Positions 94-37,778 of a stretch of 64,000 bases of DNA are shown piece after piece. A program made the translations under genes and the position numbers. How positions within the stretch are numbered: position 1 is the stretch's first letter; the number at the start of each line of letters is the position of its first letter. The DNA is from a virus (Duplodnaviria; Caudoviricetes). The stretch lies in IMG/VR virus record IMGVR_UViG_3300005512_000001, positions 64,001 through 128,000 of that record; one strand, written 5' to 3'. Under the pieces are notes generated by a model that saw only the letters and a list, made by a program, of their open reading frames with translations, was not told the DNA's origin and ran no database searches.

Positions 94-122
94 TTGCTGC
101 TGGCGGCTATGCGCAGCACCAC
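94..122 (+). promoter_or_regulatory. C-for-T sigma70-like promoter
   Basis: TTGCTG-N17-CACCAC; T-free tract 111-154; followed by AGGAG and the ATG at 173. Confidence 0.7.
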
Positions 123-172
123 GACACCACGACACCACGACACACGACGCGCACTATGAATAGGAGAGAGTT

Positions 173-493
173 ATGAATTTCGAAGTCGTCTTGACCAGTA
201 CGGACCATGGATTCCACAAACGTGGCTTGGGCCAAACCCCATCGGTCGCCTTGACCAATGCATTTCGGAAGGTTTTGAAGTCTGAAATGCCTGCAGACCG
301 AGAGGAAGCTATTGACCAGATTGGCCCACAGGAAGTGGGTCAGCATTTCATGATGGTCAGTGTCTCAGATGAATTCCTTGAGAATCCCAAGACGCTCAAG
401 GAAGAAGTGCATGATTACATGCTCATCATCCGGGTCGATAAGTCCAAGGAAACGATGTACACCATCGCTGGATGGATTCGGCCAATTTTCTAA
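173..493 (+). CDS. hypothetical protein
   Basis: 106 aa ORF with AGGAG RBS downstream of the promoter motif. Confidence 0.75.
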   Translation: MNFEVVLTSTDHGFHKRGLGQTPSVALTNAFRKVLKSEMPADREEAIDQIGPQEVGQHFMMVSVSDEFLENPKTLKEEVHDYMLIIRVDKSKETMYTIAGWIRPIF

Positions 494-503
494 GAGGTAA
501 TCT

Positions 504-1334
504 ATGTCGATTTCAACAGAAGAAGTCTTGAAGACCGTTGAGTTAGCCATCACCCATTTCCGTAAAACGGCATTAACGGAAGAAGAAGTCTTGAAGACCG
601 TTAATGAGGTACTTGGTGATCATATCAATGACATAATCTTAAATATGGTTGGTATGAAGAAGTCGAGATGGGATAGTGGTTATGAGGTTGTCCATCCTAG
701 TATAGTCGATGCGATTATTAAGGACAAAATTACAGAAGGCGTCGACAAATTTCTTAATGAAGTTGCTAGTTCTATAAATTTAGCCCCCACCAAGCAACAA
801 TTGGCAGCGATTAAACGCAATGCCAAATCGAAGTATCTAAATGCCTTGCGAGAAGTAGTCACAGAATCTGTTGTGAAGCGTGCAAACGACGACGCTGCTA
901 AATTGACCCAACTAATTGTAGGAAGCCCCACTAGGGTTGCGGATTTTATCCGGCATTACCGTAGCAACCATATAGAGGCAACCGAAGAGATAAATACAGA
1001 ATTTAAATCTGGTGCAGTTCTTGAGGCAGCAGTTGCTGAGTCCTTAGTGCATGTCGATAGTATAGGGAAAATAAGCCCAATTTCTGTCGAAGACCCTTCA
1101 AATACGGATGTTAGGGTTCTCGTGCGGGTCACTGACAAATTACTGCACCAATCCGCCCATATAGTGGTAGATGGCGAGAAGTGGCAACCTGCTGTCTTGT
1201 GGCATGAGGATGGGGAATATTATTTAACATCAGAATTCAACTGGGGCGATCATGCAGTATTTTCCCTTATGGGACCAGCTGATAAAGTGATTATAAATGA
1301 GGCAGTACAGAAGTTTGTGGATGCTACCCCTTAG
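504..1334 (+). CDS. hypothetical protein, C-terminal DP/xDG family domain
   Basis: GAGG RBS; C-terminal EDPS...VVDGEKW...ADKVIINEAVQKF motif shared with other ORFs in the window. Confidence 0.7.
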   Translation: MSISTEEVLKTVELAITHFRKTALTEEEVLKTVNEVLGDHINDIILNMVGMKKSRWDSGYEVVHPSIVDAIIKDKITEGVDKFLNEVASSINLAPTKQQLAAIKRNAKSKYLNALREVVTESVVKRANDDAAKLTQLIVGSPTRVADFIRHYRSNHIEATEEINTEFKSGAVLEAAVAESLVHVDSIGKISPISVEDPSNTDVRVLVRVTDKLLHQSAHIVVDGEKWQPAVLWHEDGEYYLTSEFNWGDHAVFSLMGPADKVIINEAVQKFVDATP

Positions 1335-1414
1335 GGTCGTCTTGACACTCCCTTTGGCTCACGTCGCCATCTATCTATCCATGATATAGTAGAACACCCC
1401 GAGCCTGCATGTAA

Positions 1415-1443
1415 TTGACGACGCGGGCGTAGCGTTACACTAC
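1415..1443 (+). promoter_or_regulatory. C-for-T sigma70-like promoter
   Basis: TTGACG-N17-CACTAC, intergenic, followed by AGGAG. Confidence 0.7.
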
Positions 1444-1459
1444 GTGTTGTAGGAGATGG

Positions 1460-2140
1460 TTGATGCTATTAAGTGGTGACAGACAAAATGTGATTTCCTG
1501 GCTGGTAGAGAATATGGATTTATATACCGAGCAAGGATATAAATTCCATCGTGGCGACGGGAGCCGACACGACCGCCATGAATTGTCTATTAAACTTCCA
1601 GGTGTCATCTGCCATCTCAACAATAATGAATTCCAAATCCGATATAGGACGCATAAAGGCGGATACAATACACAATATTGGCGACTACCATGGAGTAGTG
1701 AAAGAGAAATAACCACAGAAGAAAAAGCCCTCCAGCTTCTTGACCACATGAAAGAGAAATCAGAGACTACTCCACTGTGCCCCAAAAGAATCACATCTAA
1801 ATCTCAATTGCCTTGCCCCTACCAATTTGTCACCAATATTGGATATGAAAATGGTGTTGCTGTGTCGTGTCAGGTATTGCGTGATTGCAAAGTAATAGAT
1901 ATTGTGGCGATTTCTAACAATCTGAAATTGATACGGCCATCTGAACCCGGCACCAATCCATGGTTTCTATTTGAATGCCAAACTCATACTAGTGGGCGGT
2001 TATGGGTCATTGTTAATACCAATGGGTATTATGAGGTTTCACGGAGCCAAAAAGTACAGGGGAAATTAAGACACTCAGAATTGACGAAATCAGACAAAGA
2101 ATTGATTTCATTAGCAATACGAAAGTTTGCAGATGGATAA
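1460..2140 (+). CDS. hypothetical protein, DP/xDG family
   Basis: SEPG...VNTNGYY...LTKSDKELISLAIRKF. Confidence 0.65.
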   Translation: MMLLSGDRQNVISWLVENMDLYTEQGYKFHRGDGSRHDRHELSIKLPGVICHLNNNEFQIRYRTHKGGYNTQYWRLPWSSEREITTEEKALQLLDHMKEKSETTPLCPKRITSKSQLPCPYQFVTNIGYENGVAVSCQVLRDCKVIDIVAISNNLKLIRPSEPGTNPWFLFECQTHTSGRLWVIVNTNGYYEVSRSQKVQGKLRHSELTKSDKELISLAIRKFADG

Positions 2141-2167
2141 TTATAACATTTTTGTGGGAGAATATTA

Positions 2168-2437
2168 GTGCTTGCACAAAATATATGTTTTGTTATCACG
2201 ATTGCGGGAGAGCAGCAAATCTATGCCATTACTGATGTTGGCGGGAACCTTCTCAGATGGCTAGAGGTGTTGTCCACGTGCATACCTGATAGTTCAGTCA
2301 CCGGGACGATTAGTGCTGGTGACAACGGAATGCATTTTGGTGTTTTCAACTACCACGAATTCCGTACGCTGCTAAAAGCAATAGGCTATGGTGACGCCAT
2401 AACCACTGCTGATATATTATATCAGAAGACCAAATGA
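2168..2437 (+). CDS. hypothetical protein
   Basis: GGGAG RBS, GTG start, stop overlaps next ATG. Confidence 0.6.
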   Translation: MLAQNICFVITIAGEQQIYAITDVGGNLLRWLEVLSTCIPDSSVTGTISAGDNGMHFGVFNYHEFRTLLKAIGYGDAITTADILYQKTK

Positions 2438-2838
2438 CCGCAAAGAACATATGGCTAGAGTTTGAGCAAAGCCAAATTCCAACTATAATTATACGGAATC
2501 GCTTAACATGGTATGGCAGTATATTCCTAACTAGAATATCAATAGCATCATATGTCTATGATGAAGGCAGTCTAATAGTCTGGTCCAGAGAAACAACCGA
2601 CCCCAATATGCCAGTAATGTTCTTGATTAATTATTTAGGGTCAACCTACAAGGCGGCATATCCACACCACATCGTAACAGACGGCGAAAAATGGTGCCCA
2701 TTAATTCAAGGCAATAGACATAAATGGAGGTCGTACCCAGGACAATATTATGGGTCTAACCTCACAACCGAGGACCAGCAACGACTATGTATCTACATTG
2801 AAAGCTACATAAGTGAAATAACCGAGGACCAGACATGA
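2434..2838 (+). CDS. hypothetical protein, DP/xDG family
   Basis: TDPN...IVTDGEKW...LTTEDQQRLCIYIESY; ATGA overlaps. Confidence 0.65.
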   Translation: MTAKNIWLEFEQSQIPTIIIRNRLTWYGSIFLTRISIASYVYDEGSLIVWSRETTDPNMPVMFLINYLGSTYKAAYPHHIVTDGEKWCPLIQGNRHKWRSYPGQYYGSNLTTEDQQRLCIYIESYISEITEDQT

Positions 2839-3731
2839 GTATAATCGTACAGGCCAAAGACCTTCTTGCGTCTATACCTGGAATAGAATTGTGGGATATG
2901 TCCATCATCTATGATGATGATGCTGGGTGTGACCCGCCACTTACGAGGCTCAGTGTCGTGCTTAAACGGGGTAAGAGCCGCTGTAATATTCGCTTTATGC
3001 TCGAAGATTCTTATGAGTGGATTACCCCATCAGACGGACGGAATGAAGACATATTCAATACAATAAACACATTAATAAATGCTGGGTTTAGAACTAGAGT
3101 AGCTTTCCAGTTTACTTTGCGTGATTCACTTCTTAATTTTAACACTGAATACATCACCGCGTCTAAGGACAAAGCACGCATTTTATGTTCTTGGCGCGGC
3201 GATGAGCTATGCATAGAGATAAAAGCCAGAGTCAGGGGCAAGCATTATAGAAGGATTCGAATACCACAAGATATATCCCTGGAAAATGCAATTATATTTG
3301 CTGATAAGCTTATCGAATCTATGAATGCAACAACGTATGAAAATATAACTCCTCCAAACATATTTAAACCCACAAGCTACTCTAGTCACAAAGAATATGT
3401 TGGTGTCGGCGGCGACCCAGGGAATAAAATAACAATGAAAAAGACTGATAGACTGAGGTCTATATCAGTAATTGATGCCGCCTGTTTGCAGCCAGATGGA
3501 GGATTCACATTTGACACTGCAGACCCTGGCAATAAACACGTATGGATTATTGTTTATGCTATAGATATCGAGGGGTTACAACGCGTATTGGCAGTGAACG
3601 GTGATGAATGGTATGAATTAGATGGCAAGAAGTATTTATATATAGGCATGCATATTGACGACCTTACCACAGATGACCAGTTGTTTATAAACGATTGTAT
3701 TAATAACTGGGCGGTGACTAGTCAAAGTTAA
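2835..3731 (+). CDS. hypothetical protein, DP/xDG family
   Basis: ADPG...AVNGDEWY...LTTDDQLFINDCINNW. Confidence 0.7.
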   Translation: MSIIVQAKDLLASIPGIELWDMSIIYDDDAGCDPPLTRLSVVLKRGKSRCNIRFMLEDSYEWITPSDGRNEDIFNTINTLINAGFRTRVAFQFTLRDSLLNFNTEYITASKDKARILCSWRGDELCIEIKARVRGKHYRRIRIPQDISLENAIIFADKLIESMNATTYENITPPNIFKPTSYSSHKEYVGVGGDPGNKITMKKTDRLRSISVIDAACLQPDGGFTFDTADPGNKHVWIIVYAIDIEGLQRVLAVNGDEWYELDGKKYLYIGMHIDDLTTDDQLFINDCINNWAVTSQS

Positions 3732-3735
3732 AACC

Positions 3736-4323
3736 ATGGCATTAGAATTCACATTAGATAATCCAATTCTTGGCGTTCAATATGAACGTAACGCACTAGA
3801 TGCATACCTCAGGAATTTTGTCGTGCTACGTCGATACTCTAAGATAAATAATTTTGGAGACGAGCTAGATGCGATTCTAATCAGACATGGCGGCGAAAAA
3901 TTGGCGTCCTTAGATGTTGAGGATTTGCCAGAAGAAGAAAAACAAAAGATGGGCGGAATGCTGCCAACCCTTAAACGAGCCATAGACACAGCACAAATAG
4001 AATTGAAAGACGAGATTGACGCTGGCCGAAAAGGCGTCAAACCATTTATAGACTCTATAGATTATAGGTTTAAGAACAAAGATGGGCGTCTAATTAATTT
4101 TAAATTGGACCCAGATGCCCGTGCATATAGAACACTTCAAGAATTCGAACAACTTCTATACAGTCTCCCAAATGGTGAGGAAATCGAGGCACAATTTTTA
4201 CCGACTTTTCAACTATTGCGTAGAGAGATGGTTAATTGGGGTTGGGACGAAAAGGATGCCAGCCCCCAAGCAACACTACTAACTATCAAAAAGCTTTGTG
4301 ATCAATGGTCTAATCATGGTTAG
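3736..4323 (+). CDS. hypothetical protein
   Basis: 195 aa ORF in a tightly packed operon. Confidence 0.65.
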   Translation: MALEFTLDNPILGVQYERNALDAYLRNFVVLRRYSKINNFGDELDAILIRHGGEKLASLDVEDLPEEEKQKMGGMLPTLKRAIDTAQIELKDEIDAGRKGVKPFIDSIDYRFKNKDGRLINFKLDPDARAYRTLQEFEQLLYSLPNGEEIEAQFLPTFQLLRREMVNWGWDEKDASPQATLLTIKKLCDQWSNHG

Positions 4324-4430
4324 TGGTGATAGGAGACTATCATGCTGCGATGGTTTAAAAAGATATTCAGGCTCAGACATAGACCTAATATTAAATTAGA
4401 GCTGAAATTTTTGCGTAAGATGGCTGGCCG

Positions 4431-5042
4431 ATGAAACTCACTTTGGGTTATTCTGAATTTGAATGTTCTAATGTTGGAACCAGAGTGCGATATGTTCATT
4501 GGTATGCGGCAGGCACTTATCTGTCTTTAATAGAGAAGAAATATCAGATTGTGGGTCATTGCCGTATTGATTGGCACCCTAAATTTGGCCAGCGTCAATA
4601 TGTCGATCATAAATTCATATTCAAACCTAGAATCAAGCAAATGCAGCACGATGGCATAAATGCATTTAAGATAGTTGAAAATGATGGTGAATTAAATGAG
4701 GCTGCAGCGGACCTCTATGACAATAGAACACCGATACGATTTTGTATAACAAAAATCAGAGATAGGAAAACCATTGTCGGCAATCGTAATGGTAAATTAG
4801 TAGCTAATTTAACTGACCCACAAACGAAGCCATTAGTTAAGCTGAGCATAATCCTGTCTCCCAAAATTCGATATCACACAGATTGCCATCTATATGTTTA
4901 TAGTGATGGCACTGCTCACTATGAACGGCGACCTAAAACATCATTCCTAAGACCCATATCCTTCTGCGCAGAAGACGCACAGAAAATCTATGTCGCTGTA
5001 GCAGAATGCGTTAGGGATTTTGCAAAGCAATACTTGTTATAG
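4431..5042 (+). CDS. hypothetical protein, DP/xDG family
   Basis: TDPQ...VYSDGTAHY...AEDAQKIYVAV. Confidence 0.6.
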   Translation: MKLTLGYSEFECSNVGTRVRYVHWYAAGTYLSLIEKKYQIVGHCRIDWHPKFGQRQYVDHKFIFKPRIKQMQHDGINAFKIVENDGELNEAAADLYDNRTPIRFCITKIRDRKTIVGNRNGKLVANLTDPQTKPLVKLSIILSPKIRYHTDCHLYVYSDGTAHYERRPKTSFLRPISFCAEDAQKIYVAVAECVRDFAKQYLL

Positions 5043-5062
5043 CGTGTCCGGCGTCACACCAG
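5034..5062 (+). promoter_or_regulatory. C-for-T sigma70-like promoter (weaker -10)
   Basis: TTGTTA-N17-CACCAG, T-poor leader, GAGGAG RBS before 5110. Confidence 0.55.
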
Positions 5063-5109
5063 ACGCGAACGAGCGTAACCGAGCGTAACACAGAAAAGAG
5101 GAGAGTCAA

Positions 5110-5760
5110 ATGGGTAATGCGTTTACAGCCGCAGCCGCCAAAGCACCTGCAGGGGCGGCATCGAAGAGTAAAAAGTCGCAAAATATCGTAGAAGTGCGGG
5201 ATGATGAGGTTGGGGCTGCTATCGATGAACTTGTTGCGGCCCATGGCCGTATCAAAGCTGCTGAGACAGATAAGAGCATCGCCAGTTCCACGGCTTTGCC
5301 ACACTGTCTTGAGAAGTTCTTGGCGGATTTCGCGGCTGCACAACGGAAGCCTAGCACCATGAAGTTCCGGTCTGAGAAGGGTAATACGGTCACTTTAGTG
5401 GTCCAAGACCGTGGTGAGCGGTATGACGTTTCCGAAGAGCAACACGCCACCATTCTTGCTATCTTGGGTAAGAAAAAGACTGAGGATATTATACTGCGGG
5501 ACATGACATTCTCATTCAACAATGCTATACTCAACAAGCCCGGTGTGATGGATGCACTCGGCGAGAAAATCGGTGAGTTGGTCGCCAGCGGAATTCTGAC
5601 CGGCGATGAAGCTGGTAGTCTGCTTGAGGCTAACCACCGCATGACGGTCCGCAAGGGCGTAGTTGATGACCTCGGAAAATTATGTGATAACGACCCCGAC
5701 CAAATGAAGACCTTGCTTGAGGCTCTCGGCTCACATTCGAGTGCCTATGTCAAACCGTAG
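5110..5760 (+). CDS. hypothetical protein (probably highly expressed)
   Basis: strong RBS, GC-richer codons, own promoter motif. Confidence 0.75.
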   Translation: MGNAFTAAAAKAPAGAASKSKKSQNIVEVRDDEVGAAIDELVAAHGRIKAAETDKSIASSTALPHCLEKFLADFAAAQRKPSTMKFRSEKGNTVTLVVQDRGERYDVSEEQHATILAILGKKKTEDIILRDMTFSFNNAILNKPGVMDALGEKIGELVASGILTGDEAGSLLEANHRMTVRKGVVDDLGKLCDNDPDQMKTLLEALGSHSSAYVKP

Positions 5761-5801
5761 TATTTGTGGTTACACAACCCTAAGGCCCTAAGGAGCGGCA
5801 T

Positions 5802-6293
5802 ATGTATAAAATGGAAATACTTCGCCATATTGTGGAACTTGTTGCCTCTGGCCCTAAAACGAAAAGGCCATGGGATGATATCGTGCTCCGGTATCAAAGT
5901 GCGACAAAAACTACAGTAGACAAAAAATCTTTATGTAATGCATATCACCGCATGACTAAAAAACAGGGGTCGCCAAATCCATTCAGGCGGTCAGCAATAA
6001 ATTCTGATACGCCCATAGTGCAATCCAAAGCACCCAAAGCACCCAAAGCACCCAAAGCACCTGGGACAATTCCAGGGGTAAGAGCAAGGATATACAAGCC
6101 TGACACAAGCCCCGCAGAGAGCTTCGGCTTAGCATTGCAAAAAATAGTTCGTGACACAGCACACCAAGCAATAGAAGAGGCAATACGTGATTTGGTAATC
6201 CGCCTCGAAACCAAAGCCGTAGCCGCCGACCCACAATCCGAGCTTTTCACTGCTGCAGTTGATAAGGCAGTTGAGGACCTCTTTAATCGGTGA
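5802..6293 (+). CDS. hypothetical protein with KAP repeat, possibly DNA-binding
   Basis: AAGGAG RBS; 9-bp tandem repeat AAAGCACCC encodes (KAP)4. Confidence 0.65.
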   Translation: MYKMEILRHIVELVASGPKTKRPWDDIVLRYQSATKTTVDKKSLCNAYHRMTKKQGSPNPFRRSAINSDTPIVQSKAPKAPKAPKAPGTIPGVRARIYKPDTSPAESFGLALQKIVRDTAHQAIEEAIRDLVIRLETKAVAADPQSELFTAAVDKAVEDLFNR

Positions 6294-6306
6294 GCTACAA
6301 AGACCA

Positions 6307-6353
6307 ATGATGAATGAATGCCCTGGCCCCACCCCAGGGCATTCATTCATCAT
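6307..6353. terminator. 20-bp perfect hairpin after gene
   Basis: ATGATGAATGAATGCCCTGG / CCAGGGCATTCATTCATCAT, 7-nt loop; no clear U-tract. Confidence 0.6.
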
Positions 6354-6448
6354 GTCTGTAAACGTGGAATAAGAACTAGCATCCTATTCAGCATGCACGA
6401 CAAAGAACTTTGGCTGAGGCAGCATAAATTCATTATAAGGAATAAAAA

Positions 6449-7309
6449 TTGAAAATTATATTAATCCTTTGCATTTTGGTGCAAATAGCAGAGGGTGGGT
6501 TGATTAGCAAGTTGGAAGCTGGGCACAACCAAAAAGTCGTTTGCATGGGAACTTCACTAACTGCTGGTGATAGATGGGTTGCACCATTAAGGGATTGGCT
6601 TATCAGCCGCTACCCTAGCCAAGTGGAAATGATTAATAGTGGCGTTCCAGGTTCAGAGTCTTCTGATGGTATCCGCGACCTGCAGGTATTAGTCCTCAAC
6701 CACCAGCCCGATGTTTTGTTTATCGAGTATGGGATGAATGATGCTTGGTCTATCGGCGAGGGTTATCCAGAGAAAATCTCGCCAGAAACATCCACAGCCA
6801 ATCTGAATTTCATAATAGATTCACTATTGTTACAAAACCCAAATGCAGATGTGATACTCCAAACAACCAATGCCTCAACGAGCATACATAGGCCGAGATT
6901 GCCATTATATTATCAAGTCCATCGGGATGTTGCAACTGCACGTGGCTTAATGTTAATTGACCAATACCCAGTCTGGGAGAAAATCTTAATAGAGGAACCA
7001 GAACTCTATGCTCAATATGTGAGTGATGGTGTTCATCCATCTGCTATTGCCTGGGGGGCTATTGGGTTCCCTATCATACAATGTAGTCTATTATCAACGC
7101 AATTTATACGCGGCGATATTGACACAGATGGCTTCATAAACGACGATGATTTGTCGATATTGTTATCGAATTGGAATACCGGCGAACAGTGGGAACATGG
7201 CAATTGTGATGGCGCTGGTGTAGTAGGTGATGATGACCTTAGCTATCTATTGGCTAATTGGACCGGCCCGCCCCCAACCGCAATTATCCCAATACGTTTG
7301 CCTTATTAA
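6449..7309 (+). CDS. secreted SGNH/GDSL hydrolase with C-terminal dockerin-like EF-hand repeats
   Basis: signal-like N-terminus; G-T-S-L-T, NSG, GMND and DGVHP blocks; GDIDTDGFINDDDLSILLSNW and GNCDGAGVVGDDDLSYLLANW repeats. Confidence 0.8.
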   Translation: MKIILILCILVQIAEGGLISKLEAGHNQKVVCMGTSLTAGDRWVAPLRDWLISRYPSQVEMINSGVPGSESSDGIRDLQVLVLNHQPDVLFIEYGMNDAWSIGEGYPEKISPETSTANLNFIIDSLLLQNPNADVILQTTNASTSIHRPRLPLYYQVHRDVATARGLMLIDQYPVWEKILIEEPELYAQYVSDGVHPSAIAWGAIGFPIIQCSLLSTQFIRGDIDTDGFINDDDLSILLSNWNTGEQWEHGNCDGAGVVGDDDLSYLLANWTGPPPTAIIPIRLPY

Positions 7310-7337
7310 TTCTAGGCAGCCTTATTTTAATTAAACC

Positions 7338-9158
7338 CTACAGGACTCTGCGGGCACCACTATGCGGCGGGGCAATTGCACCATAGAAACTACCATCATC
7401 ACGCCATAGCGACGTATTTGTCGGTATGTACTCGTCGCGCGAAGTTCTTGTCATACTAAGAATTCCTGGGTCAAGGTTGACACTATTCAAGTCATTATAT
7501 TCTGTATTCTCTTGATATGGTGTCTGCCATGCGGCTTGAACCTCTTCAATAGTTGTGCATTCATATAGTGCAAGATTGCCAGCACCATCACCAAGTGTCA
7601 TTAATATCGAGCCATTTGGTGCCCAATAGCAGTTCTTATCGCTACGCACTCGCATTGGGCGGGCTGCATTATATGTTGTATCAGCGGAGTATGCATAATC
7701 AGAAAAGCATGCAAATGGTGAATTCACTAATGGGTCGGCTGGCGCATCTGCAAGGGTTATAAATAAGTTATTTTCTATTGTTGAGTCGATGCTGACTTCC
7801 CAAGCTGTCCCTAAAGGCACCCCAGTCATACAAGCATTGCGTGAATCTGAAATAAATGTATTATTAACACACGTAGACCGGTCGCCAAATAACAAGCACG
7901 GCCAATAGCCCGCATGGCATACGTTATAACCCACAGTAACATCATCCGCAGCGATTTCAAAATCGTGTGCTTCTTCGCCGCCAAAGAGCGTGTTATTACG
8001 AATGATTGCGCCGTTTGGCCCGATACCAAGGCCGAATGAACCGCCAGATAAATCATCACCGCCAGGATTAAAAATTGTATTTTCTGCGATAACAACCTTA
8101 CCCCAAAGTTGTGAAGATGCTGCATATTCGACAGCACGCGTTGTTGTGCTCACTAACGACCCAATTTGAACTACACGTGCTTGCCCACCATTACCATCTG
8201 GCCAAGTAATTCGATTTTCTTGGAACGTTAGATTAAGTTTAGCATCTGAATCTGTTGACAAATCCATAATGTTAATTGGTGCTACGCGGTTATATAATGC
8301 GCCAGTTGTGCCGTGGAATAGCCAATCATTATCGACAATACGCCATGTTTTTGCAGTTGTCTTGATATCTGGGATGCAGAAGAAGCAATCTTGCGTATCT
8401 GATAATTTCCATTCAAATCGGTTCCCTTCGATATGTACATTACCGACCTCGACTGTATTACCTCTAACTGGTACAACTGTAGTGCCACCCCCACCAAGCA
8501 GCATTTGTGAAACTCCAGACATCCGGATGCCTGCGAAAGTGACTTGGTTTCGAAGAATTGATAAATCACCTGCACATTTCTTGAAATAGAAGAATGAGGC
8601 GTTGATATCGCCTGTTGATGTAATTACATTATCTTCAATTCTACGTGTGCCAGTGTGATCATGGCCTGCGCCATAAAAAGCTGCCTTATTTGTGCCTTCA
8701 AGATTGATAATACAATCATGGACATACAAATTCGAAGCATATTCGACTGGTGGTGCAAAATATTCAAGAAAATGACCTGCACCTGACCAGTCCATACCGG
8801 TGACTTCTAAAGTTGTATCGGCTGCATCATAGTCATTTATTAAAACGCCGCGTGTGTTATTGGAACCTAGTAAATATGTTGTTGCACCAAGGGTAGTACA
8901 TGGTCTGATTATAATATTAACACCATCATGTGTCGAAGTAAGGCTAATAAGGTCTCCTGCTGCAGCAGCACCGGAATTACGCGTGACAGGTCCTCTAACT
9001 TCGGCAATTACCGTATCGCCCGCGATCGTACCAATCCCAGCCCAACCAGCACCGAATACCTGGGTCATACTTGCCCATGCATCAGTGTTGGGGTCTGTGC
9101 CGCCATTACCATTATTGCCGCTGATATAGTCTACGTAGCGAGTATACGTTGTCGCCAT
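7338..9158 (-). CDS. right-handed beta-helix (pectin-lyase-like) protein, possible virion/tailspike protein
   Basis: N-terminal YVD..SGN..N.G...AW motif; recurring I.NN.(F/I) beta-helix turns; GGAG RBS. Confidence 0.6.
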   Translation of the reverse strand: MATTYTRYVDYISGNNGNGGTDPNTDAWASMTQVFGAGWAGIGTIAGDTVIAEVRGPVTRNSGAAAAGDLISLTSTHDGVNIIIRPCTTLGATTYLLGSNNTRGVLINDYDAADTTLEVTGMDWSGAGHFLEYFAPPVEYASNLYVHDCIINLEGTNKAAFYGAGHDHTGTRRIEDNVITSTGDINASFFYFKKCAGDLSILRNQVTFAGIRMSGVSQMLLGGGGTTVVPVRGNTVEVGNVHIEGNRFEWKLSDTQDCFFCIPDIKTTAKTWRIVDNDWLFHGTTGALYNRVAPINIMDLSTDSDAKLNLTFQENRITWPDGNGGQARVVQIGSLVSTTTRAVEYAASSQLWGKVVIAENTIFNPGGDDLSGGSFGLGIGPNGAIIRNNTLFGGEEAHDFEIAADDVTVGYNVCHAGYWPCLLFGDRSTCVNNTFISDSRNACMTGVPLGTAWEVSIDSTIENNLFITLADAPADPLVNSPFACFSDYAYSADTTYNAARPMRVRSDKNCYWAPNGSILMTLGDGAGNLALYECTTIEEVQAAWQTPYQENTEYNDLNSVNLDPGILSMTRTSRDEYIPTNTSLWRDDGSFYGAIAPPHSGARRVL

Positions 9159-9178
9159 ATTTATCTCCTATGGCTTGA

Positions 9179-9721: not shown

Positions 9722-9846
9722 ATTGTTATCTCCTACTATATAAATATATTTGAATAAATTTGCCATGAATATCTACGCTTCATTACGGCAATAATATTAT
9801 GGCAGTATTTGATTGCCGGTAATGGTATTATACACAAAAGCAATAG

Positions 9847-9875
9847 TTATCGTCAAAGGCTTGTTGCGCCACAAC
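9847..9875 (+). promoter_or_regulatory. C-for-T sigma70-like promoter
   Basis: TTATCG-N17-CACAAC, upstream of AAGGAG and the ATG at 9923. Confidence 0.6.
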
Positions 9876-9922
9876 GGCTTGATGACGTTTGGTGGTCAAT
9901 AACACACAGAAGGAGTTGGATT

Positions 9923-10327: not shown

Positions 10328-10330
10328 GTT

Positions 10331-11005: not shown

Positions 11006-11034
11006 TTGTTTGCGCGACGCTGGCGCGACACAAA
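11006..11034 (+). promoter_or_regulatory. C-for-T sigma70-like promoter heading the NAD salvage operon
   Basis: TTGTTT-N17-CACAAA with CGCGA extended -10. Confidence 0.7.
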
Positions 11035-11071
11035 AGAGCGATGAAGCGTGCCATCTAGATAGGAGAATAAA

Positions 11072-13819: not shown

Positions 13820-13825
13820 GGATAT

Positions 13826-15571: not shown

Positions 15572-15600
15572 TTGCCCATAACAGCGTCGTGCAGCACGAC
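15572..15600 (+). promoter_or_regulatory. C-for-T sigma70-like promoter
   Basis: TTGCCC-N17-CACGAC; T-free tract 15591-15621 to the RBS. Confidence 0.7.
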
Positions 15601-15627
15601 GACGGACAGAACACGAAAGGATAAAAA

Positions 15628-19784: not shown

Positions 19785-19813
19785 TTCTCGCAGCCGCTTC
19801 TGTGCTGCACAAC
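19785..19813 (+). promoter_or_regulatory. C-for-T sigma70-like promoter
   Basis: TTCTCG-N17-CACAAC, intergenic before GGAG and the ATG at 19851. Confidence 0.65.
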
Positions 19814-19850
19814 AGCACGAGACAATGCGCGGCTATCGGAGAAGCTAACA

Positions 19851-22409: not shown

Positions 22410-22438
22410 TTTCTTCAGCCCGATCGGCGCGACACCAA
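22410..22438 (+). promoter_or_regulatory. C-for-T sigma70-like promoter
   Basis: TTTCTT-N17-CACCAA with CGCGA extended -10. Confidence 0.6.
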
Positions 22439-22460
22439 AAATTGGTCGAGGAGAAGCAAC

Positions 22461-24701: not shown

Positions 24702-24708
24702 GGCTCAC

Positions 24709-30235: not shown

Positions 30236-30504
30236 CGATGAATTAGAATTCGCAGAGGCAATCGGCGGTAGAATTATGTCATACTCCGAATGGCCTGAGC
30301 ATCTCAGTGCTGTAGTCATTGATACAGCTGAGGAGATGGAATTTGAGTTGGAGCGGGGCGGTGATATGCGCGTCATCCAAATTGGCGATCGTAAACTTAT
30401 CTTGAGGGCCGACAATATAGATGGCCACGGAGCTTTAACCTGTGGTGAAATCATCGAGGGATAGGTTCAGGCAAATATGAAGCAATAAAGCAGGGACAAA
30501 TGAA

Positions 30505-30532
30505 TTTACAAAACGCGACAGCACGACACAAA
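30505..30532 (+). promoter_or_regulatory. C-for-T sigma70-like promoter (16-bp spacer)
   Basis: TTTACA-N16-CACAAA, T-free 30508-30536. Confidence 0.5.
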
Positions 30533-31080
30533 AACATAGACCTAAGCCTAAGAGTAGCTATGGCCACTGATGCTATTGTAGTTCTGGAGCACCCAGACCT
30601 CAAAGAGCAAACCCCTTGGGCAATTAGCGAATTTGAAAAATATTGGGATGTATTTGAAGATCGCATCACAAGTGTACGTTAGTTAGCGATTTTCCCACAA
30701 TTCGAGATGAACACATGAACGGCAAGACCGCCCCGGCTAATAAGATTCACCAACTCCGTCCTTACGTCGACTATATCCTTGAAACCCTAGGGATGACCGA
30801 TGCAACCATTACTGATGCCTCCAAAATAGACCATCTATTGGATGCTGAATTATGGGATAAGGACGACCACGGTGAACGCACAGACCTAAATGAGGATGGC
30901 GAGAGATACATAGCCCATATCTCTTCGATTATTGGGGTGAAGATTAAATTGGGTGACCATATCCACGATATCGCCTCTAGGTTCGCCAAGCAAATGTCTT
31001 AATAGCCTGCCGTTATCGGCAGTTTTTTATAAGGGAGACCTTGGTGCTTATACGCCAAGGTCTCCCTACTATATCCGGAA

Positions 31081-31109
31081 TTTCCCCGCCGACGACAGCG
31101 CGGCACAAC
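31081..31109 (+). promoter_or_regulatory. C-for-T sigma70-like promoter
   Basis: TTTCCC-N17-CACAAC; T-free tract 31084-31128. Confidence 0.7.
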
Positions 31110-31357
31110 ACAACGCAGCGGACGGAGCTAGGGCAGGAGTACCTGAGAGTGGGAAACTGCCCTAGATTTATATTAACCTTGGGAAATAATAATGACTGCA
31201 ATCAAACACCAACTCATCAAGGAAGTGCAGATAGTGGCAAGGCACAATATATAATCCCATTTGAGATCGTTGTTATGTTCTTGGTCTCACATGGACACCT
31301 TCAGGCCGATGAGGAATATATCATCAGCTATTCCTGGTAATTGTTAGGAGTCTTACC

Positions 31358-31762
31358 ATGCGACGTTGGTCACTGCTCATGACGGCGTTACTGGTCCCAT
31401 TCATTGGTGGTTGCGGCCTTAATTTCTCCAAAGGACAAGGTTCCTTGGCGAAACTGGAGTCGTCTTGGTCGTTATCGATTTTTGACAGTTCTGGAAGCCA
31501 TCAGGTCGGTATGACAAACCCATTGCGGAACACCGGGCCAGCAGAAATCGTGGCCTGTAAACAGATTGACACTGGGCCGCAAACCACTGAAATTGGTGGG
31601 TATCAAAATCGATTGATGCCTGATACCACCAAGAATACCCCAAAATTGTGGCGTGCCTGGAATGAGAAGACCAGACAGATAGAATATATTCCATGGGATG
31701 AATTGCCACCTAGAACTCAAAGGGCTTATAGTTCGGCGCAAGCAATGCCTCAAACTTGGTGA
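31358..31762 (+). CDS. putative lipoprotein
   Basis: AGGAG RBS; signal peptide ending FIGGC. Confidence 0.6.
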   Translation: MRRWSLLMTALLVPFIGGCGLNFSKGQGSLAKLESSWSLSIFDSSGSHQVGMTNPLRNTGPAEIVACKQIDTGPQTTEIGGYQNRLMPDTTKNTPKLWRAWNEKTRQIEYIPWDELPPRTQRAYSSAQAMPQTW

Positions 31763-31908
31763 GGGAACTAGGATATGATGGACTCATCAAATGAAAATCC
31801 AGATTTATGTGCTGCGTGTGGCGGGGAATGTTGCAAATGCGGACCAGGTATTGTGCATCCAGACGATTTGGAAGGTGATATCACAGCAGCTATAGGAGTG
31901 CTAGCAAT

Positions 31909-32862
31909 ATGGAAATAGAGCCCACAAAACCCACTAGAGCTATTTCTTGGACTCAATGTAATCATATTCGAAAATGCAACATCACGGTTACTACCGATGA
32001 TGCTCTTGAGTTTGTGTTGGCCTACACTGACTTCGATGTCTCTACTCTTCAAGAAATCAAAGTAATACGGGACCAGTTCTATTTTATTTGTGATGGCTAT
32101 GAAATTAGTGTGAAACCTAGCCTAGTGTTCGGTCACAAACACCGCCTACGCCCTGTGTACACTAAATATAATGTAGCTTGGGTTTCAGACATCATTGAAA
32201 AAGATAGAACTATCAAATTGCGTATAGCCTATGCCTATGTGGAATTCGACAATGGTAAAAACAAACTGATTATCACACAAAGACACGTCAGAGTCCGGGT
32301 GCAGAACTACTATGCTTATTTATCTGTTAAAAATAAAGATGGTAAATGGGAGGAATTGAGATGTATATCAGTTTATAATCATACAAACAGGATAGATATG
32401 GCAGTATATGAGCTATTAGCACAGGGTCTCTCTATACCTGCTCCCCCTACTAAAGAAGAACTTCTTAAACTAGGGCTTCCTGAACCCCACAAATTTGATA
32501 ATACTGGAAGAATAACAACTGAAACTAGTGGATGGTATCGCCTGAAACGCGGAATTATTTCAACTGTTTTTGTTGAGGCTATTGTCTGTATAAATCAAGA
32601 TAGAACTTTGAGAGACGCAGTTGGGCCTTCTGAGTCTGAAGCCTGGTTCCAGTTAAGCTGCTATTCTAACGTTAGGCACACCAAATTCACTGTCTTGTCT
32701 AATGGAGAATCTTTCTATATCGCCACTAAAGTTGGGAAGAATTTGAAAGTAGTTGAGTCCACAAAAATTAATAGCTACCTTGACGCCAAACTCACTGATA
32801 TGGACCAGACTATGATTAAAGAAATTATGGCCTGCCACGTGGAGAAACTAGAGCTAGAATGA
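31909..32862 (+). CDS. hypothetical protein, DP/xDG family
   Basis: VLSNGESFY...LTDMDQTMIKEI. Confidence 0.65.
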   Translation: MEIEPTKPTRAISWTQCNHIRKCNITVTTDDALEFVLAYTDFDVSTLQEIKVIRDQFYFICDGYEISVKPSLVFGHKHRLRPVYTKYNVAWVSDIIEKDRTIKLRIAYAYVEFDNGKNKLIITQRHVRVRVQNYYAYLSVKNKDGKWEELRCISVYNHTNRIDMAVYELLAQGLSIPAPPTKEELLKLGLPEPHKFDNTGRITTETSGWYRLKRGIISTVFVEAIVCINQDRTLRDAVGPSESEAWFQLSCYSNVRHTKFTVLSNGESFYIATKVGKNLKVVESTKINSYLDAKLTDMDQTMIKEIMACHVEKLELE

Positions 32863-32981
32863 TAATTGTAGCTGCAGACATCAATAGATTAGAAGAACCT
32901 GGGTACTCAGATTTCGTTATGGCGAAGCACTACGAGGGCCAAATCTCCGAACTCAAGTCCCAAATACGGGCGTACAGTTAG
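32859..32981 (+). pseudogene. truncated paralog of the 14437/35916 family
   Basis: MIIVAADINRLEEPGYSDFV resembles MIIITPHPDRLEDPDFKDIV, then switches to unrelated GC-richer sequence. Confidence 0.5.
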
Positions 32982-34055
32982 GGAGTCGACCATGTTGCGA
33001 CCCAACCAGCTCCATCTCATCTGGAAGATGCTTTCCACCGCCCATGACCTCAACATCAAGTGGAACGAACTTTCCATAGCCCACCTGCGTCATCTGGTAA
33101 GTCACGATATAACCGGTGTCGAAGCCGAAGCCATGACCCTACACGCCAAGATAGATGCCATCCAAGTGTTTGATGACGTCTATGACGATGAGGGGATATC
33201 GTGGTCAGGCCGCGAAGTCAGGAGTCTCATCTCGGACCTTATTAATCTCCAGAGGGATGGGTGGGAAGTCTACACGTGGTCCGGCCCAAACGATGAATCG
33301 CTGATCATCGCCGTACAAATGAGGAGCTAGCCAAATGCAAACTATCATGGAACTTCGCCATTGGATTCGCAGCTGGGGAAAGATTGACCTGGAGTGGGGG
33401 CAAAATCAGATGTGGTACTCGTATGAGTACCCCAATGCCCCGACATGGCGGGTGAAGGTGATGGTTTACACCGATATCATCCGCTGCCAACTCAAGGGTT
33501 TGGTCTGCATCTTTCTGCAACACAAGTGGGTGGATGACAGCTACGGCGGTCCGGAGTCCGGGTACGAATCCATCGAGTGTATGCGGTGTGGCGAAAGCCA
33601 TTTCCAGAGAATGTACTAGAGGAAGAATCAGCATGGACATGAAATATATCGTTGTTGAAGCTTACCCCTGCCAATTCGCTGTGATTATCTTCTCGGATAA
33701 TCTAGAGCATTCCGCGATGGTCCCTAATGATATCAGCCCTAAGAGGATTAGGTCTGCTGGCTTCTGTCGCATTTCATGCCGTATTTCCCCGTCTATCAGC
33801 ACAAAGGCATATATGCCCACACCAGAAATAAGTTGCTATACTTGGGGGCGATCCCAATCTCTGAATGTTGATTCCAACGAAGACGATGCTGACTTAATCT
33901 TAAAAGAGCTTAATAGGTGGAGCAGATGAAATACACAATCAACCTTCATAAACCCGCGATGGGCGGTTGGTAACAGGCGATTCCTAACAGAGAGAATTCA
34001 ATGTGCTCTAACCTCGCCCAATTGAATCTAGAAGCTGCTGGATTCATTAAAGATT

Positions 34056-34445
34056 CTATTCTACTCTACGCGAGGATTTCCTCACGTGGACGACGGCAGA
34101 ATTCCCTAGTAGCTCTTCCATCTGGTCAGAGAATGACAGCACGAATTCTCCGACTTTGCTACCCTCATCTTGGTTGTTTGGTGGGAATGCAGAGGAACAT
34201 TTCCCGGCTTTGGCACGCCCCAGAGCGATCTGCCTACCTAGCTTCTTATTGAAATGGTCCTTCTTATGGCAAGCAGACCATCCAATATCTATGAAATTGT
34301 CCTCATCCACAATCGCTACGGCACAAGCGATAGGTGCCCAAGTATTAACGTCTCTCAGGTACCGGGTGAAGATTCGCGGCTTGGGGTCTTCATCTGAAGA
34401 CTTCTCCACATCCACACTCACGACCTTCGACATTACTTTTTCCAT
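34056..34445 (-). CDS. conserved phage hypothetical protein
   Basis: G.S.C...D.FNKK.GR.IA..RA motif. Confidence 0.65.
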   Translation of the reverse strand: MEKVMSKVVSVDVEKSSDEDPKPRIFTRYLRDVNTWAPIACAVAIVDEDNFIDIGWSACHKKDHFNKKLGRQIALGRAKAGKCSSAFPPNNQDEGSKVGEFVLSFSDQMEELLGNSAVVHVRKSSRRVE

Positions 34446-34848
34446 CTCTGCTTCCTTTCAAAGTTCCAAGACTCTAACGTTAGGCTCAGGTTTATTGTGT
34501 GTTTTTGGTTTGCGATAGACAATTCTATGCTTCCTATCGCAATATTTTATAGCCACATTTCAGGCACCATTCCCCATTCCCCATTCCCCATTTATGCTTG
34601 CATCTCTAGCTCTAACACCCTCGCATTGGAAGGTATTTTCTTTTTGGGTTTCCTCTTAACCTTTTTCTTTTTCAATCTTCGATATTGGGTGTCATAATAC
34701 CCACCCATCCAGTACTCACCCCTCCTGGTTCTCAAAGTACCGCATTTCTGGCACCATTCAACTGTCCGCCTAATGTGGAATCCCTCATCCAGTCGGGAAT
34801 CGCTCCCCCCACCTATCACAGTTATAAATGACCAAGTATGCCTACATC

Positions 34849-35088
34849 TCATAATTCTAATACCCGAGGTTTTGGCTTTTTAATCTTGATTTTTAGTTTG
34901 GGTTTACGTTTGGGCTTACGTTTGGGCTTACGTTTGGGCTTACGTTTGGGCTTACGTTTGGGCTTACGTTTGGGCTTTACAGGTTTTACCTTGTAGTACC
35001 GATAATAGTAATGGTCGTAGGCAGGGGTATGTGGTCTACATAACTCTCGTATAGCCCCCACAGTTCTTACACCAATCCCATGCATCAC
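34849..35088 (-). CDS. small basic protein with (KPKR)n, ends RVLEL
   Basis: 12-bp microsatellite, about 6 units at about 34900-34977. Confidence 0.55.
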   Translation of the reverse strand: MMHGIGVRTVGAIRELCRPHTPAYDHYYYRYYKVKPVKPKRKPKRKPKRKPKRKPKRKPKRKPKLKIKIKKPKPRVLEL

Positions 35089-35736
35089 CTATATGGTCCC
35101 ACTCGTGAGAGCATCTTTTTGTCTTTTTCTTTATTGCCATTTATGTTCAATCCGTAGAAGCCCAATAGCCAACCGAACTTCTTTAATGTGATGTTGATGC
35201 GGGCAGGACAACTGTGGGATTGGGGCAGTTATAATATTTTGAATCTGTCACAATACGATTGCCACCAATAATTGTTGACATTATCATTTTTAATTGTCAA
35301 TTCTACATCGGGCGGGCATCTTTGTCCTGTTATCATTGCATGGTGTCTGGCCCAAATTGGCGATTTATAAAGTATAGGTTTCAAAAGGTCCATGTTGTTC
35401 TGAAACATCCCGCTTTCCACATAAGCAAGTTCAGCTAGAGACATTGCCGTAACGTCATCTTTCCCATCGTCAATGATAACGTCACTGCTATATATCGGCG
35501 TGGTACTTCGTTGTATAATAGTGACGTTAGAACAAGTTAGCAACAATTACATGTTTTATGTCGGGGGACTTTTGCGTAAATAATTGGATTTAATATATTT
35601 TAGAATATATATTTATCCCGCCCTCGCTCTAGCGAAAATACTTTTTCTCGCGTGAGAAGTATCATTTGGAACATTCTGAATTGCTCTCGTAACGCTCCTG
35701 AGGCACTATTCAAAAATCCACAAGCTAGGCCCTAGT

Positions 35737-35884
35737 GGGCAGATTTAGAGATTATAACGTTATAAACTGAATTATTTCAGCAGCAACCATCCGAGGGCAG
35801 ATTTAGAGATTATAACGTTATAAACTGAATTATCTATGGTGCGAAAACCCGAAAACACCCGCTTATTATTTCTATAACGTTATA
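35737..35884. repeat. 39-bp direct repeat x2 containing a 14-bp palindrome, plus a third palindrome copy
   Basis: GGGCAGATTTAGAGATTATAACGTTATAAACTGAATTAT at 35737 and 35795; TATAACGTTATA at 35873. Confidence 0.9.
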
Positions 35885-35915
35885 ATTAATCTTCTATTTT
35901 GCTAGCAGAGAGATA

Positions 35916-36326
35916 ATGATTATTGCAACTAAAAACCCTGACAATCTTGCTATTCCCGGTTTTACAGATTTTGTGCTTTATGACAACGGGACAGAAGAAA
36001 TAACTGTTATTGGGATTAAGGAAATCTTCTGTTTTTGCATGGAGAGCAGAGTCAGAATTCCTAAAATGGAGGGAATTTTGGCGCAAAGTGCCCGGTATTC
36101 GTATCTTTATGCGTTAATATTTGGGAGATTTGGAATTGGGGAGGTTGCGATTCTAAAATCTCCCAAATATTCATATCGATATGCAGTTAACGTTATAAAA
36201 GGCAGATGGATAGAGGGAGAAGATACGATTTACCGAGACCCAGAATGCGGGTTGGCCTATCATAGATGGGTGAAGGATAGGTATCCATCTATTTCTCTCG
36301 AAGACTATCGTTTTATTAAGAAATGA
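35916..36326 (+). CDS. paralog of the 14437 repeat protein
   Basis: MIIATKNPDNL..PGF.DFV.YD.G.EEI; YSYRYAVNVIKGRWIEGED.I..DPE. Confidence 0.7.
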   Translation: MIIATKNPDNLAIPGFTDFVLYDNGTEEITVIGIKEIFCFCMESRVRIPKMEGILAQSARYSYLYALIFGRFGIGEVAILKSPKYSYRYAVNVIKGRWIEGEDTIYRDPECGLAYHRWVKDRYPSISLEDYRFIKK

Positions 36327-36816
36327 TATGGGAATTGGGTATTTTTCTGGGAGTGCGCGAGCTCTCCCGCCGAGCATAACTCCTAATTGGGGGGCTAATT
36401 AGGGTGCAAGCCAACCTCAGACTATAGATTTAACTAGAAAGGTATACCACGGCTTGGGAGGGAAATAGGTATTTGGAAATTGACATATACGGTGATTAGA
36501 CTGGGAAGTTATTGACTCATATCCTACTGGGGAGGGAGTGACATGCACCCTGCTTAGCAAAAATAACTCAGGAGTTAAAAATGGATATAAACGAAATTTT
36601 GAATTGGGTAAGGCAGAGATTGAGAGATGAGCCAGAAATGCACAGCCATGATGAGAGAATGATTTCTCTCGGGAGGCAGGAAGCATTCAATGAAGTTTAT
36701 AGTTATTTGGGCAAGATTTCCGATTCTCTAGTGCCAAGTCCTGAAGAGCAGGTAGATGATGACTGGGTAAGTATCGACGACGTTGGCCAAATCGCCGACC
36801 AGATGTAAATACAGCG

Positions 36817-36848
36817 AGAGGGGACTCCTAATTAAAGGAGTCCCCTCT
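36817..36848. terminator. bidirectional terminator between convergent genes
   Basis: AGAGGGGACTCC / GGAGTCCCCTCT hairpin. Confidence 0.7.
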
Positions 36849-36874
36849 CTTCCTACCGGGGGGTCAGGCCGTCG

Positions 36875-37228
36875 TCAGGCCGTCGCCAGTTCCTCGGCAT
36901 CCCGGACTTCCTCACCGTCCGCGTCGATGAGCTGGAGGCATTCCCAGTCATCCACGTGGCCTTCGGCGTACCCGGCCTTGGTCCAGGACTTCCACTTGGG
37001 GGAGTCGGGGGCCGGGAGCGGGTGCGTCATGCACTCGGCGTCGAAGTTCCGGCCCAGATTCCCACCGTACACGTTGGCCGACGTGAAGGTGTTTTCCTGG
37101 TCATTGACGATCAAGAGGGTGTTTGCCGGGGTTCCGAAATCGTGATCCATCGGCTTCACGAAGACCCGAGTTGCCTGAATGGGCTTCCCACCCAGACCGT
37201 ACAGCTTGCGAAGTTGCTTACTCGTCAT
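36875..37228 (-). CDS. hypothetical protein, paralog of 41820 gene
   Basis: GGGAG RBS; MDHDFGT, QENTFTSANVYG, DAECMTHPLPAPDS.KWK.WTK.GYA shared. Confidence 0.85.
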   Translation of the reverse strand: MTSKQLRKLYGLGGKPIQATRVFVKPMDHDFGTPANTLLIVNDQENTFTSANVYGGNLGRNFDAECMTHPLPAPDSPKWKSWTKAGYAEGHVDDWECLQLIDADGEEVRDAEELATA

Positions 37229-37286
37229 GTCAAATACTCCCATAATGGAGGAATCGTCGCGGGCAAGCCTCTCTCGCCCGACACTT

Positions 37287-37315
37287 TCCGTGTCGCGGCG
37301 TGCGTTGCCGGTCAA
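37287..37315 (-). promoter_or_regulatory. C-for-T sigma70-like promoter
   Basis: TTGACC-N17-CACGGA with CGCGA extended -10. Confidence 0.6.
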
Positions 37316-37778
37316 CTGGGTATTTGGAAATGGGAATTTCCCGTCTGGAAATTCCAAATTGACATGCACGCTACTTAGGGTAGATGAGAATTTCCTGTAC
37401 CCTGCTTAGCCGGAGAATCCTAGTTGCCTCCGCCGCCCCGACGCGACACAAAAAGCGGCGACGGAACACGATGGGACGCTGGGCTTGCACCCCTGACGCC
37501 CCGACCAAGCACCCCCACCAATAGATTATGGCAAGATGGTCGTTGGTGGGTCGGATTAAGCAGGTGTGAGGTTAGCAATCTCGGGTTGGGTTTGACCAAT
37601 AGCCTGCGGAGCGGGCGGGGCTCCTAAGGGACAATTCGAATTGCTCAATTTAAATTCTTTTTTCGTACAGGATAAAGGAATATAGTATGAAAGAAAGAAT
37701 ACCGCCCTAGGGCGTGGTCAGAGAGTAGGCCGAAGAGCCAATATTATGGAGTACCGAGTGTAAAGCAGTGTGAAGTAT

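Follow-up and report, generated by a model that had tools for sequence, protein, structure and literature searches.

The thymine (T)-free tracts on the non-template strand of a 64,000-nucleotide (nt) stretch of viral DNA (hereafter the window) probably represent the core of a lineage-specific class of promoters, together with the part downstream of it, in an uncultured jumbo phage with a genome of 341 kb. The window comprises bases 64001–128000 of IMG/VR record IMGVR_UViG_3300005512_000001, a complete virus record of 341,434 bp with direct terminal repeats. Each tract would consist of two layers: motif positions that are fixed and, incidentally, hold another base than T, and a compositional rule that disfavors T and allows adenine (A) on the non-template strand, over about −16 to +13 relative to the predicted start (to +30 at some sites). 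In a previous reading of the window from its letters alone (the sequence-only reading), the tracts were described and assigned either to a targeted T>C process or to selection against T, with DarT2-type toxins as a possible pressure. The inherited, promoter-linked character of the tracts and the selection against T are retained here, and the T>C process and the toxin pressure are not.

Thymine-free runs and the promoter consensus

The four T-free runs of the sequence-only reading were recovered exactly at 111–154 (44 nt), 15591–15621 (31 nt), 31084–31128 (45 nt), and 37430–37471 (42 nt), as were the mirror A-free runs at minus-strand sites (38717–38759, 43 nt; 37284–37313, 30 nt; 40714–40738 together with 40687–40712). 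Under a second-order Markov null, T-free runs of at least 40 nt number 3 in the window against 0.08 expected and 8 in the whole genome against 0.3. For A-free runs of this length, the window has 2 (0.03 expected) and the genome 4 (0.13 expected). An independent and identically distributed (iid) model gives a 30- to 60-fold excess of runs of at least 40 nt without T or without A, and the frequency of C-free and G-free runs matches the iid expectation. The intergenic T-free and A-free runs are all oriented toward the downstream gene.

The promoter class was described with an ungapped position weight matrix (PWM), seeded with 11 sites and iterated, in which position 0 is the first base of the hexamer. 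There are 39 sites in the genome with a PWM score of at least 18, against one in a shuffled genome, and 35 of them score at least 24; the pattern TTKY-N15-GCRRCAC has 25 matches in the genome and one in the control. Counted from the hexamer, the consensus starts with AAT at −32 to −30 and gTA(G/A)TTG(C/T)(C/T) at −27 to −19, so that the −35 box reads tAGTTGCY / TTGCYN and resembles TTGACA across the 35 sites (TT at −23/−22 in 35/35, G in 63%). In each of the 35 sites, exactly 17 bp separate TTGnnn from the hexamer, within the 17 ± 1 bp of the sigma70 family. The spacer is GC-rich with 9% A and ends in (C/T)GCGA at −5 to −1, with G at −4 in 35/35. The hexamer itself is CACnAn (C-A-C-a-A-n, positions 0 to 5), having C0, A1, and A4 in all 35 sites, C2 in 34, and a free sixth base; it is followed by A/G at 6, CG at 10/11, and a purine/C-rich stretch of 20 to 40 nt. 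In the numbering of a canonical TATAAT −10 element, A is present at −11 in 35/35, and the other positions depart from that element, with C at −12 (35/35), C at −10 (34/35), and T at −7 in only 20%. The transcription start would lie about 6–7 nt past the hexamer, at position 11–13, as suggested by this geometry, and the first 13 or more transcribed bases would then be about 67% purine.

The sites are placed 25–60 nt upstream of start codons that bear a Shine–Dalgarno (SD) sequence. Plus-strand sites span 3.6 to 95 kb of the genome and minus-strand sites 101 to 107 kb; a further three lie at 300–306 kb, so that most fall in the early-looking 0–107 kb part. The −35 box was also considered as the −12 element of a sigma54 promoter and rejected, as no GG was seen at −24 in a by-eye reading of the per-position table. 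The exact promoter pattern gave three single chance matches in IMG/VR. No described consensus like tAGTTGCY-N13-YGCGA-CACnA turned up in a limited literature search, and we know of none.

The predicted sites in the window include the following, given in window coordinates.

94–154, plus strand: C-type promoter, −35 TTGCTG at 94–99, hexamer CACCAC at 117–122, T-free 111–154, then SD and an ATG at 173; PWM score 30.1
11006–11053, plus strand: C-type promoter ahead of the pncB/nadE operon, hexamer CACAAA at 11029; PWM score 38.2
15572–15621, plus strand: C-type promoter, −35 TTGCCC at 15572–15577, hexamer CACGAC at 15595–15600, T-free 15591–15621; PWM score 24.8
19785–19832, plus strand: C-type promoter, hexamer CACAAC at 19808; PWM score 33.5
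22410–22457, plus strand: C-type promoter, hexamer CACCAA at 22433; PWM score 34.3
31081–31128, plus strand: C-type promoter, −35 TTTCCC, hexamer CACAAC at 31104–31109, T-free 31084–31128; PWM score 37.8
37268–37315, minus strand: weaker C-type promoter, hexamer CACGGA from 37292, A-free 37284–37313; PWM score 21.1
37419–37471, plus strand: C-type promoter, hexamer CACAAA at 37447, T-free 37430–37471; PWM score 42.1
38717–38770, minus strand: C-type promoter, first hexamer base at 38742, A-free on the plus strand over 38717–38759; PWM score 42.1
39663–39710, minus strand: C-type promoter, hexamer CACCAG from 39687; PWM score 30.7
39928–39975, minus strand: C-type promoter, hexamer CACCAA from 39952; PWM score 29.2
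40698–40745, minus strand: C-type promoter, hexamer CACAAC from 40722, A-free 40714–40738 and 40687–40712; PWM score 37.4
40954–41001, minus strand: C-type promoter, hexamer CACTAT (which contains T) from 40978; PWM score 33.6
42305–42352, minus strand: C-type promoter, hexamer CACAAA from 42329; PWM score 29.9
42900–42947, minus strand: C-type promoter, hexamer CACTAT from 42924; PWM score 28.8

Two of these promoters are duplicates, as had been noticed from the sequence alone, and are identical over 52 bp (37419–37470 on the plus strand and 38770–38719 on the minus strand). The two copies face each other 1.25 kb apart within a GC-rich island at about 36.8–43 kb, which holds 11 of the promoter sites of the window. 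A terminator-like hairpin directly precedes the promoter at 31081–31128 (plus strand), and past its T-free tract there is a leader element at 31129–31175, composed of a hairpin CTAGGGCAG...CTGCCCTAG containing GAGTGGGAAACTGCC and then AGATTTA. The core of this element recurs at about 43071–43100 of the genome, past another T-free run (genome 43040–43070).

Base composition downstream of the hexamer

The A/T asymmetry was measured at 24 promoter sites not chosen for T-free runs, over positions +6 to +24 from the hexamer start, of which positions 13–24 fall outside the PWM. Among 456 bases, 50 were T and 144 were A (T depletion against 0.29, p = 1e-20; A versus T, p = 1e-11). Across all 35 sites, T amounts to 4.9% at −4 to 5, 8.6% at 6–11, and 7.9% at 12–24 and then rises to 20% at 25–37 and 25% at 38–50, while A stays at 31–35%; in the 5′ regions of 169 other genes, taken as control, T is 28%. 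Local GC content accounts for far less T loss than is observed, and past the hexamer A is not lost along with T. Both results agree with the sequence-only reading, as do the location of the strand-specific tracts at promoters and their continuation past the hexamer, through the discriminator and into the initial transcribed bases. The skew is opposite in the spacer upstream of the hexamer, where A (9%) is the scarce base.

The T-poor zone covers about −16 to +13 of the predicted start, reaching +30 at some sites, and its position follows the hexamer and not the start codon. Complete absence of T is the far end of this T-poor rule: 13 of the 35 sites have 17–40 nt without T counted from the hexamer, so that about one-third reach at least 17 nt. 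Long T-free or A-free runs unrelated to promoters are also found; they are coding and mostly tandem repeats (window 6025–6061; 43821–43872 and 41857–41895, both on the minus strand; genome 229158–229230). The repeats are CCAAAGCAC ×4, a ACACAGAAC-type repeat at the 5′ end of an open reading frame (ORF), and GAAGAGGCC ×8 (window 6025–6061; 43821–43872, minus strand; genome 229158–229230).

A role of the tracts at the RNA level is an unlikely explanation, in which a U-free mRNA 5′ end would resist RNase E or another U-dependent endonuclease, or would keep the leader unstructured or protein-bound for translation. It accords with the one-third of sites at which the T-free run reaches 17–40 nt past the hexamer, well into the leader, and with leaders that are A/G/C-rich and end in SD sequences. 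However, T depletion begins upstream of the predicted start, in the discriminator, which an RNA-level role leaves unexplained; the zone is hexamer-anchored, and long leaders regain 20–25% T well before the SD sequence. No Rfam family was found in the window. Regulation of the leaders by CsrA was considered and rejected, as this genome has no CsrA gene. A CsrA homologue is present in the early region of related contigs (L020:7463–7651).

The DarT2-type toxins, which ADP-ribosylate thymidine and would select against T in single-stranded promoter DNA, were proposed in the sequence-only reading together with a macro domain encoded in the window. The macro domain gene does exist (PF01661 at 50260–50721, minus strand, 28 bits), and the T-free tracts hold no TNTC target. 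However, TNTC is not avoided genome-wide, its observed/expected ratio of 0.90 being like that of TNTA (0.90), and the T-poor zone extends to +13 to +30, beyond the −11 to +2 bubble. Moreover, only one promoter class is T-poor, over a zone of about 40 nt, whereas replication forks expose far more single-stranded DNA. The toxin pressure thus found no support, no test links the macro domain to the tracts, and this explanation is regarded as very unlikely.

Conservation of the promoter class in related phages

The window DNA gave no match by blastn against GenBank phages, and IMG/VR scans with three window proteins gave none or only remote matches. The promoter at genome 36998 precedes the gene of a MoxR-like ATPase with hundreds of homologues; tblastn of this protein against GenBank phages found no match, which points to a clade without a cultured member there. 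The same promoter class was found in the contigs L020, L021, L046, and L047, in which the MoxR-like homologue is 58–69% identical, and in IMG/VR record G009 (locus L027), in which it is 54% identical. These five relatives have the hexamers CACGAC, CACGGC, or CACAAC and 17 sites with a PWM score of at least 16, where T is 11.8% over positions 6–24 against a background of 22.8% (p = 1.5e-6); over the discriminator (+6 to +11), T is 6.9% in the relatives, compared with 8.6% in this genome. In related contigs, an 826-amino-acid (aa) protein with major-vault-protein domains (PF17795, PF11978; L021:12094–14574) adjoins the MoxR-like gene.

The orthologous promoter of the MoxR-like gene is present in 6/6 phages, and in each case the 13–26 nt past the hexamer are T-free while the sequences are unrelated. 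The differences between these six promoters at positions 6–24, counted pairwise, comprise 121 transversions, 52 A/G, and 19 C/T; this comparison had been proposed in the sequence-only reading, to see whether T/C transitions dominate. The relatives therefore keep the low-T rule while the sequence drifts, and the comparison indicates that low-T composition, rather than sequence, is conserved and is maintained by selection and does not stem from DNA damage.

These differences also bear on a footprint-targeted T>C (A>G) mutation of promoter DNA that is often single-stranded. With T written for C, the extended −10 reads like TGnTATAAT, and the tracts are GC-richer than their surroundings, both of which speak for such a process. 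It is nevertheless contradicted by the small share of C/T among the ortholog differences, and inside the footprint the −35 TT is invariant and spacer positions −10 to −5 still have about 20–30% T. Hexamer positions 1 and 3 hold C in particular (35/35 and 34/35) instead of any base other than T, the fourth position is a retained A, and the low-T rule holds in phages of 42% to 58% GC. Directed mutation of this kind is therefore scarcely credible, the least so of the readings weighed here.

In more distant relatives (35–52% identity, including five complete genomes), TTKY-N15-GCRRCAC occurs only at background counts, and T-free runs correspond to coding low-complexity sequence. The enrichment of canonical sigma70 promoters in relatives is weak and uneven.

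A possible 2-aminoadenine genome

PurZ is the synthetase type known from phages whose DNA carries 2-aminoadenine (Z). A gene for a PurZ-type adenylosuccinate synthetase homologue lies at genome 136256–137569 (L009:8256–9569, plus strand), 8.3 kb past the window end, and encodes a PurA-like protein in which Ser replaces the catalytic Asp of the GDEGKG motif, giving GSSGKG. It is closest to known PurZ: its best PDB matches are phiVC8 PurZ (6FM1/6FKO, 4e-23) and S-2L PurZ (7ODX, 1.4e-19), ahead of archaeal PurA (5e-18), and it matches phrog_1211 at 1.7e-35. PurZ with a GS[STC]GKG motif is also found in five/five complete members of the wider clade from IMG/VR, from which it may be proposed that the whole jumbo-phage clade has 2-aminoadenine DNA.

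It was considered whether Z replaces A in the virion DNA and RNA polymerase with a still short transcript copes poorly with it, in which case the template would be kept free of A/Z, and the non-template strand free of T, over the bubble and the initial 13–30 bases transcribed. Inhibition of T7 RNA polymerase and of human Pol II by Z in the template has been reported, and the retention of A together with the exclusion of T on the non-template strand is what a template-only rule predicts. However, all five complete clade members with PurZ are without C-type promoters, and the T-free runs of the distant members lie in coding sequence, as described above. The Z phages S-2L, SH-Ab 15497, and PMBT28 and the PurZ-bearing MaF61 likewise have no PWM match and no systematic intergenic T-free tracts. 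Downstream genes hold ordinary T, so elongation reads template A/Z anyway, and Z avoidance does not account for the invariant C at positions 1 and 3 of the hexamer, both of them untranscribed. This explanation is accordingly held to be quite improbable. A combined form, in which the promoter class is an adaptation to a Z genome with a lineage-specific sigma, a T-less −10, and a Z-free template until escape, is likewise doubtful; if true, no promoter grammar shaped by a non-canonical base in the genome would have been described before it.

A divergent thymidylate-synthase-like enzyme of 384 aa with a Cys-rich insert is encoded at genome 132517–133668 (L009:4514–5668, minus strand), and among the 13 records searched, it is found only in this genome. 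It could be a plain ThyA or a dUMP (deoxyuridine monophosphate) hydroxymethylase, judging from its sequence. A role as a cytosine modifier was rejected, as Asn at the uracil-selecting position points to the dUMP type and there is no evidence for modified C.

Candidate sigma factor

No phage RNA polymerase, whether of the T7 type or with beta or beta′ domains, was found with the Pfam families PF00940, PF00562, and PF00623, nor is there a DxDGD motif in the large ORFs, and the host core enzyme is therefore assumed. The C-type promoters would be read by this core enzyme carrying a sigma of non-TATAAT specificity, for which a 528-aa protein of the phage (genome 289790–291376, minus strand) is the best candidate in view of its predicted fold and its co-occurrence with the promoters. 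Its AlphaFold2 (AF2) model, with a predicted local distance difference test (pLDDT) score of 66 and five homologues, has a sigma region-2 fold. Residues 142–213 of the model align in VIA-align with E. coli sigma70 375–446 (1sig) at Z 9.8 and a root-mean-square deviation of 1.7 Å over 70 residues, and sigma factors make up 50/50 among the matches listed. The Atlas search with this protein leads to viral Sigma70_r2 clusters. Inspected by eye, the alignment has a counterpart of Tyr430 in the protein but not of the Trp433/Trp434 pair, which would loosely fit a non-TATAAT specificity. A Cys4 finger is located between its sigma2-like and C-terminal parts.

The gene adjoins an adenosine deaminase gene in this genome (G000), in L015/L016, and in G009, the last of which has a very divergent homologue (hhalign probability 98.3%). 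In four promoter-less relatives, only small ORFs and no 528-aa-like ORF follow the deaminase gene, and none of the five complete relatives has a match to the protein. The sigma homologues P0002 and P0003 are on contigs whose samples differ from those of the contigs with promoters, and they add no co-occurrence data. The adenosine deaminase itself (PF00962, 1e-37) is encoded directly upstream of the 528-aa gene at genome 291424–292341 (L014:3424–4380, minus strand) and is present clade-wide; in a PurZ phage, it might remove adenine nucleotides.

Another protein with a sigma-like domain is encoded in the window:

61019–62545, minus strand: 508-aa protein, sigma region-4-like domain at residues 355–437; Z 7–8, model pLDDT 55

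It is present across the wider clade and thus does not track the promoters. A gp55-like identity was considered for the ORF at 62591–63238 (plus strand) and rejected, since it has no Pfam, PHROG, or PDB sequence match. Upstream of this ORF there is an AT-rich motif (TTAAATTATATG) and no C-type promoter.

Proposed role of the thymine-poor start and its weighing

In the preferred reading, a sigma-specific promoter class with a T-poor start, a U-less and purine-rich start would favor stable short RNA:DNA hybrids and an efficient escape from a GC-rich promoter. Purine content of the initial transcribed sequence has been reported to correlate with productive yield, as quoted in PMC5961368. The T-free start may in addition spare the polymerase from reading template 2-aminoadenine, if the PurZ gene means a Z genome. 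This kinetic reading is preferred as the reason for the exclusion of T.

Several points weigh against the favored explanation. Promoter function and start sites are deduced from geometry, position, and conservation. The 528-aa protein has no Pfam, PHROG, or PDB sequence match, PF04542 has no match in the genome at E ≤ 1, with neither a Sigma70_r2 nor an r4 profile found in the protein, and its model has no Foldseek match against the PDB at E ≤ 0.001. The link between this candidate and the promoters consists of co-occurrence in two genomes plus the fold. Moreover, its gene is not behind a C-type promoter, so it would need an earlier promoter, and upstream of its operon there is only a moderate TTGACT-16-TATGCT with a CTAAATATA motif. 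In the genome, TTGACA/TATAAT-type matches show no excess over shuffled sequence (46, with 51 expected, and 3, with 1.9 expected). The 508-aa protein, finally, is a second protein with a predicted sigma4-like domain and a possible transcription factor.

The promoter grammar can be used to annotate transcription units in an uncultured giant-phage clade, and a concrete candidate sigma–promoter pair results from the analysis. Natural promoters that conserve such an unusual near-ban on one base, over the bubble and the earliest transcribed nucleotides, lend themselves to studying how the composition of the initial transcribed sequence controls promoter escape. To our knowledge, very little is known about host RNA polymerase and 2-aminoadenine DNA, and a PurZ phage allows asking how the enzyme handles it. 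Directed T>C editing and avoidance driven by DarT, both more exotic, drop out as explanations.

Comparison with known systems

The promoter T5 N25 is known for effects of its initial transcribed sequence, in which a purine-rich start like that of the C-type promoters is tied to higher productive yield, as quoted in PMC5961368. Unlike in T5 N25, the C-type promoters have a near-ban on one base that holds across a natural promoter family and related genomes and starts upstream of the start site.

The Z phages S-2L, phiVC8, and SH-Ab 15497 resemble this phage in having a PurZ-type synthetase with Ser in the P-loop motif. Unlike the known Z phages, it belongs to a jumbo clade in which no DatZ or MazZ was identified, and those phages have no such promoters or tracts. 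The likeness to DarT/DarG is confined to T in single-stranded DNA as the toxin target and to an encoded macro domain; unlike DarT/DarG, there is no signal in motif usage, and the macro gene has no link to the promoters.

The bacterial sigma70 and extended −10 promoters share with the C-type class two elements 17 bp apart, a TTG-led −35, an invariant A at the A-11 position, a conserved G two bases before the hexamer that corresponds to the G in the TGn of an extended −10, and a predicted start about 6–7 nt past the hexamer. Unlike sigma70 promoters, the C-type class has CACnAn, with C at −12/−10, and takes any base at −7, a position at which sigma70 requires T. It differs from extended −10 promoters in having CG instead of TG upstream, a GC-rich spacer and discriminator, and a nearly T-free initial transcribed region.

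Phage-encoded sigma cascades include those of SPO1, with gp28 and gp33/34, and T4, with gp55. As in SPO1 and T4, no RNA polymerase of the phage's own was found, a gene with a predicted sigma region-2 fold is present, and a private consensus stands before phage gene blocks. Unlike in SPO1 and T4, the candidate sigma has 528 aa with a Cys4 finger and no sequence-level match to known sigmas, the consensus is different, the promoters span the early-looking third of the genome, and the pairing with the sigma is a predicted one. By analogy, the system would most resemble a sigma-specific phage promoter class of the SPO1/T4 kind, in which the sigma70 geometry is kept and the canonical −10 is not.

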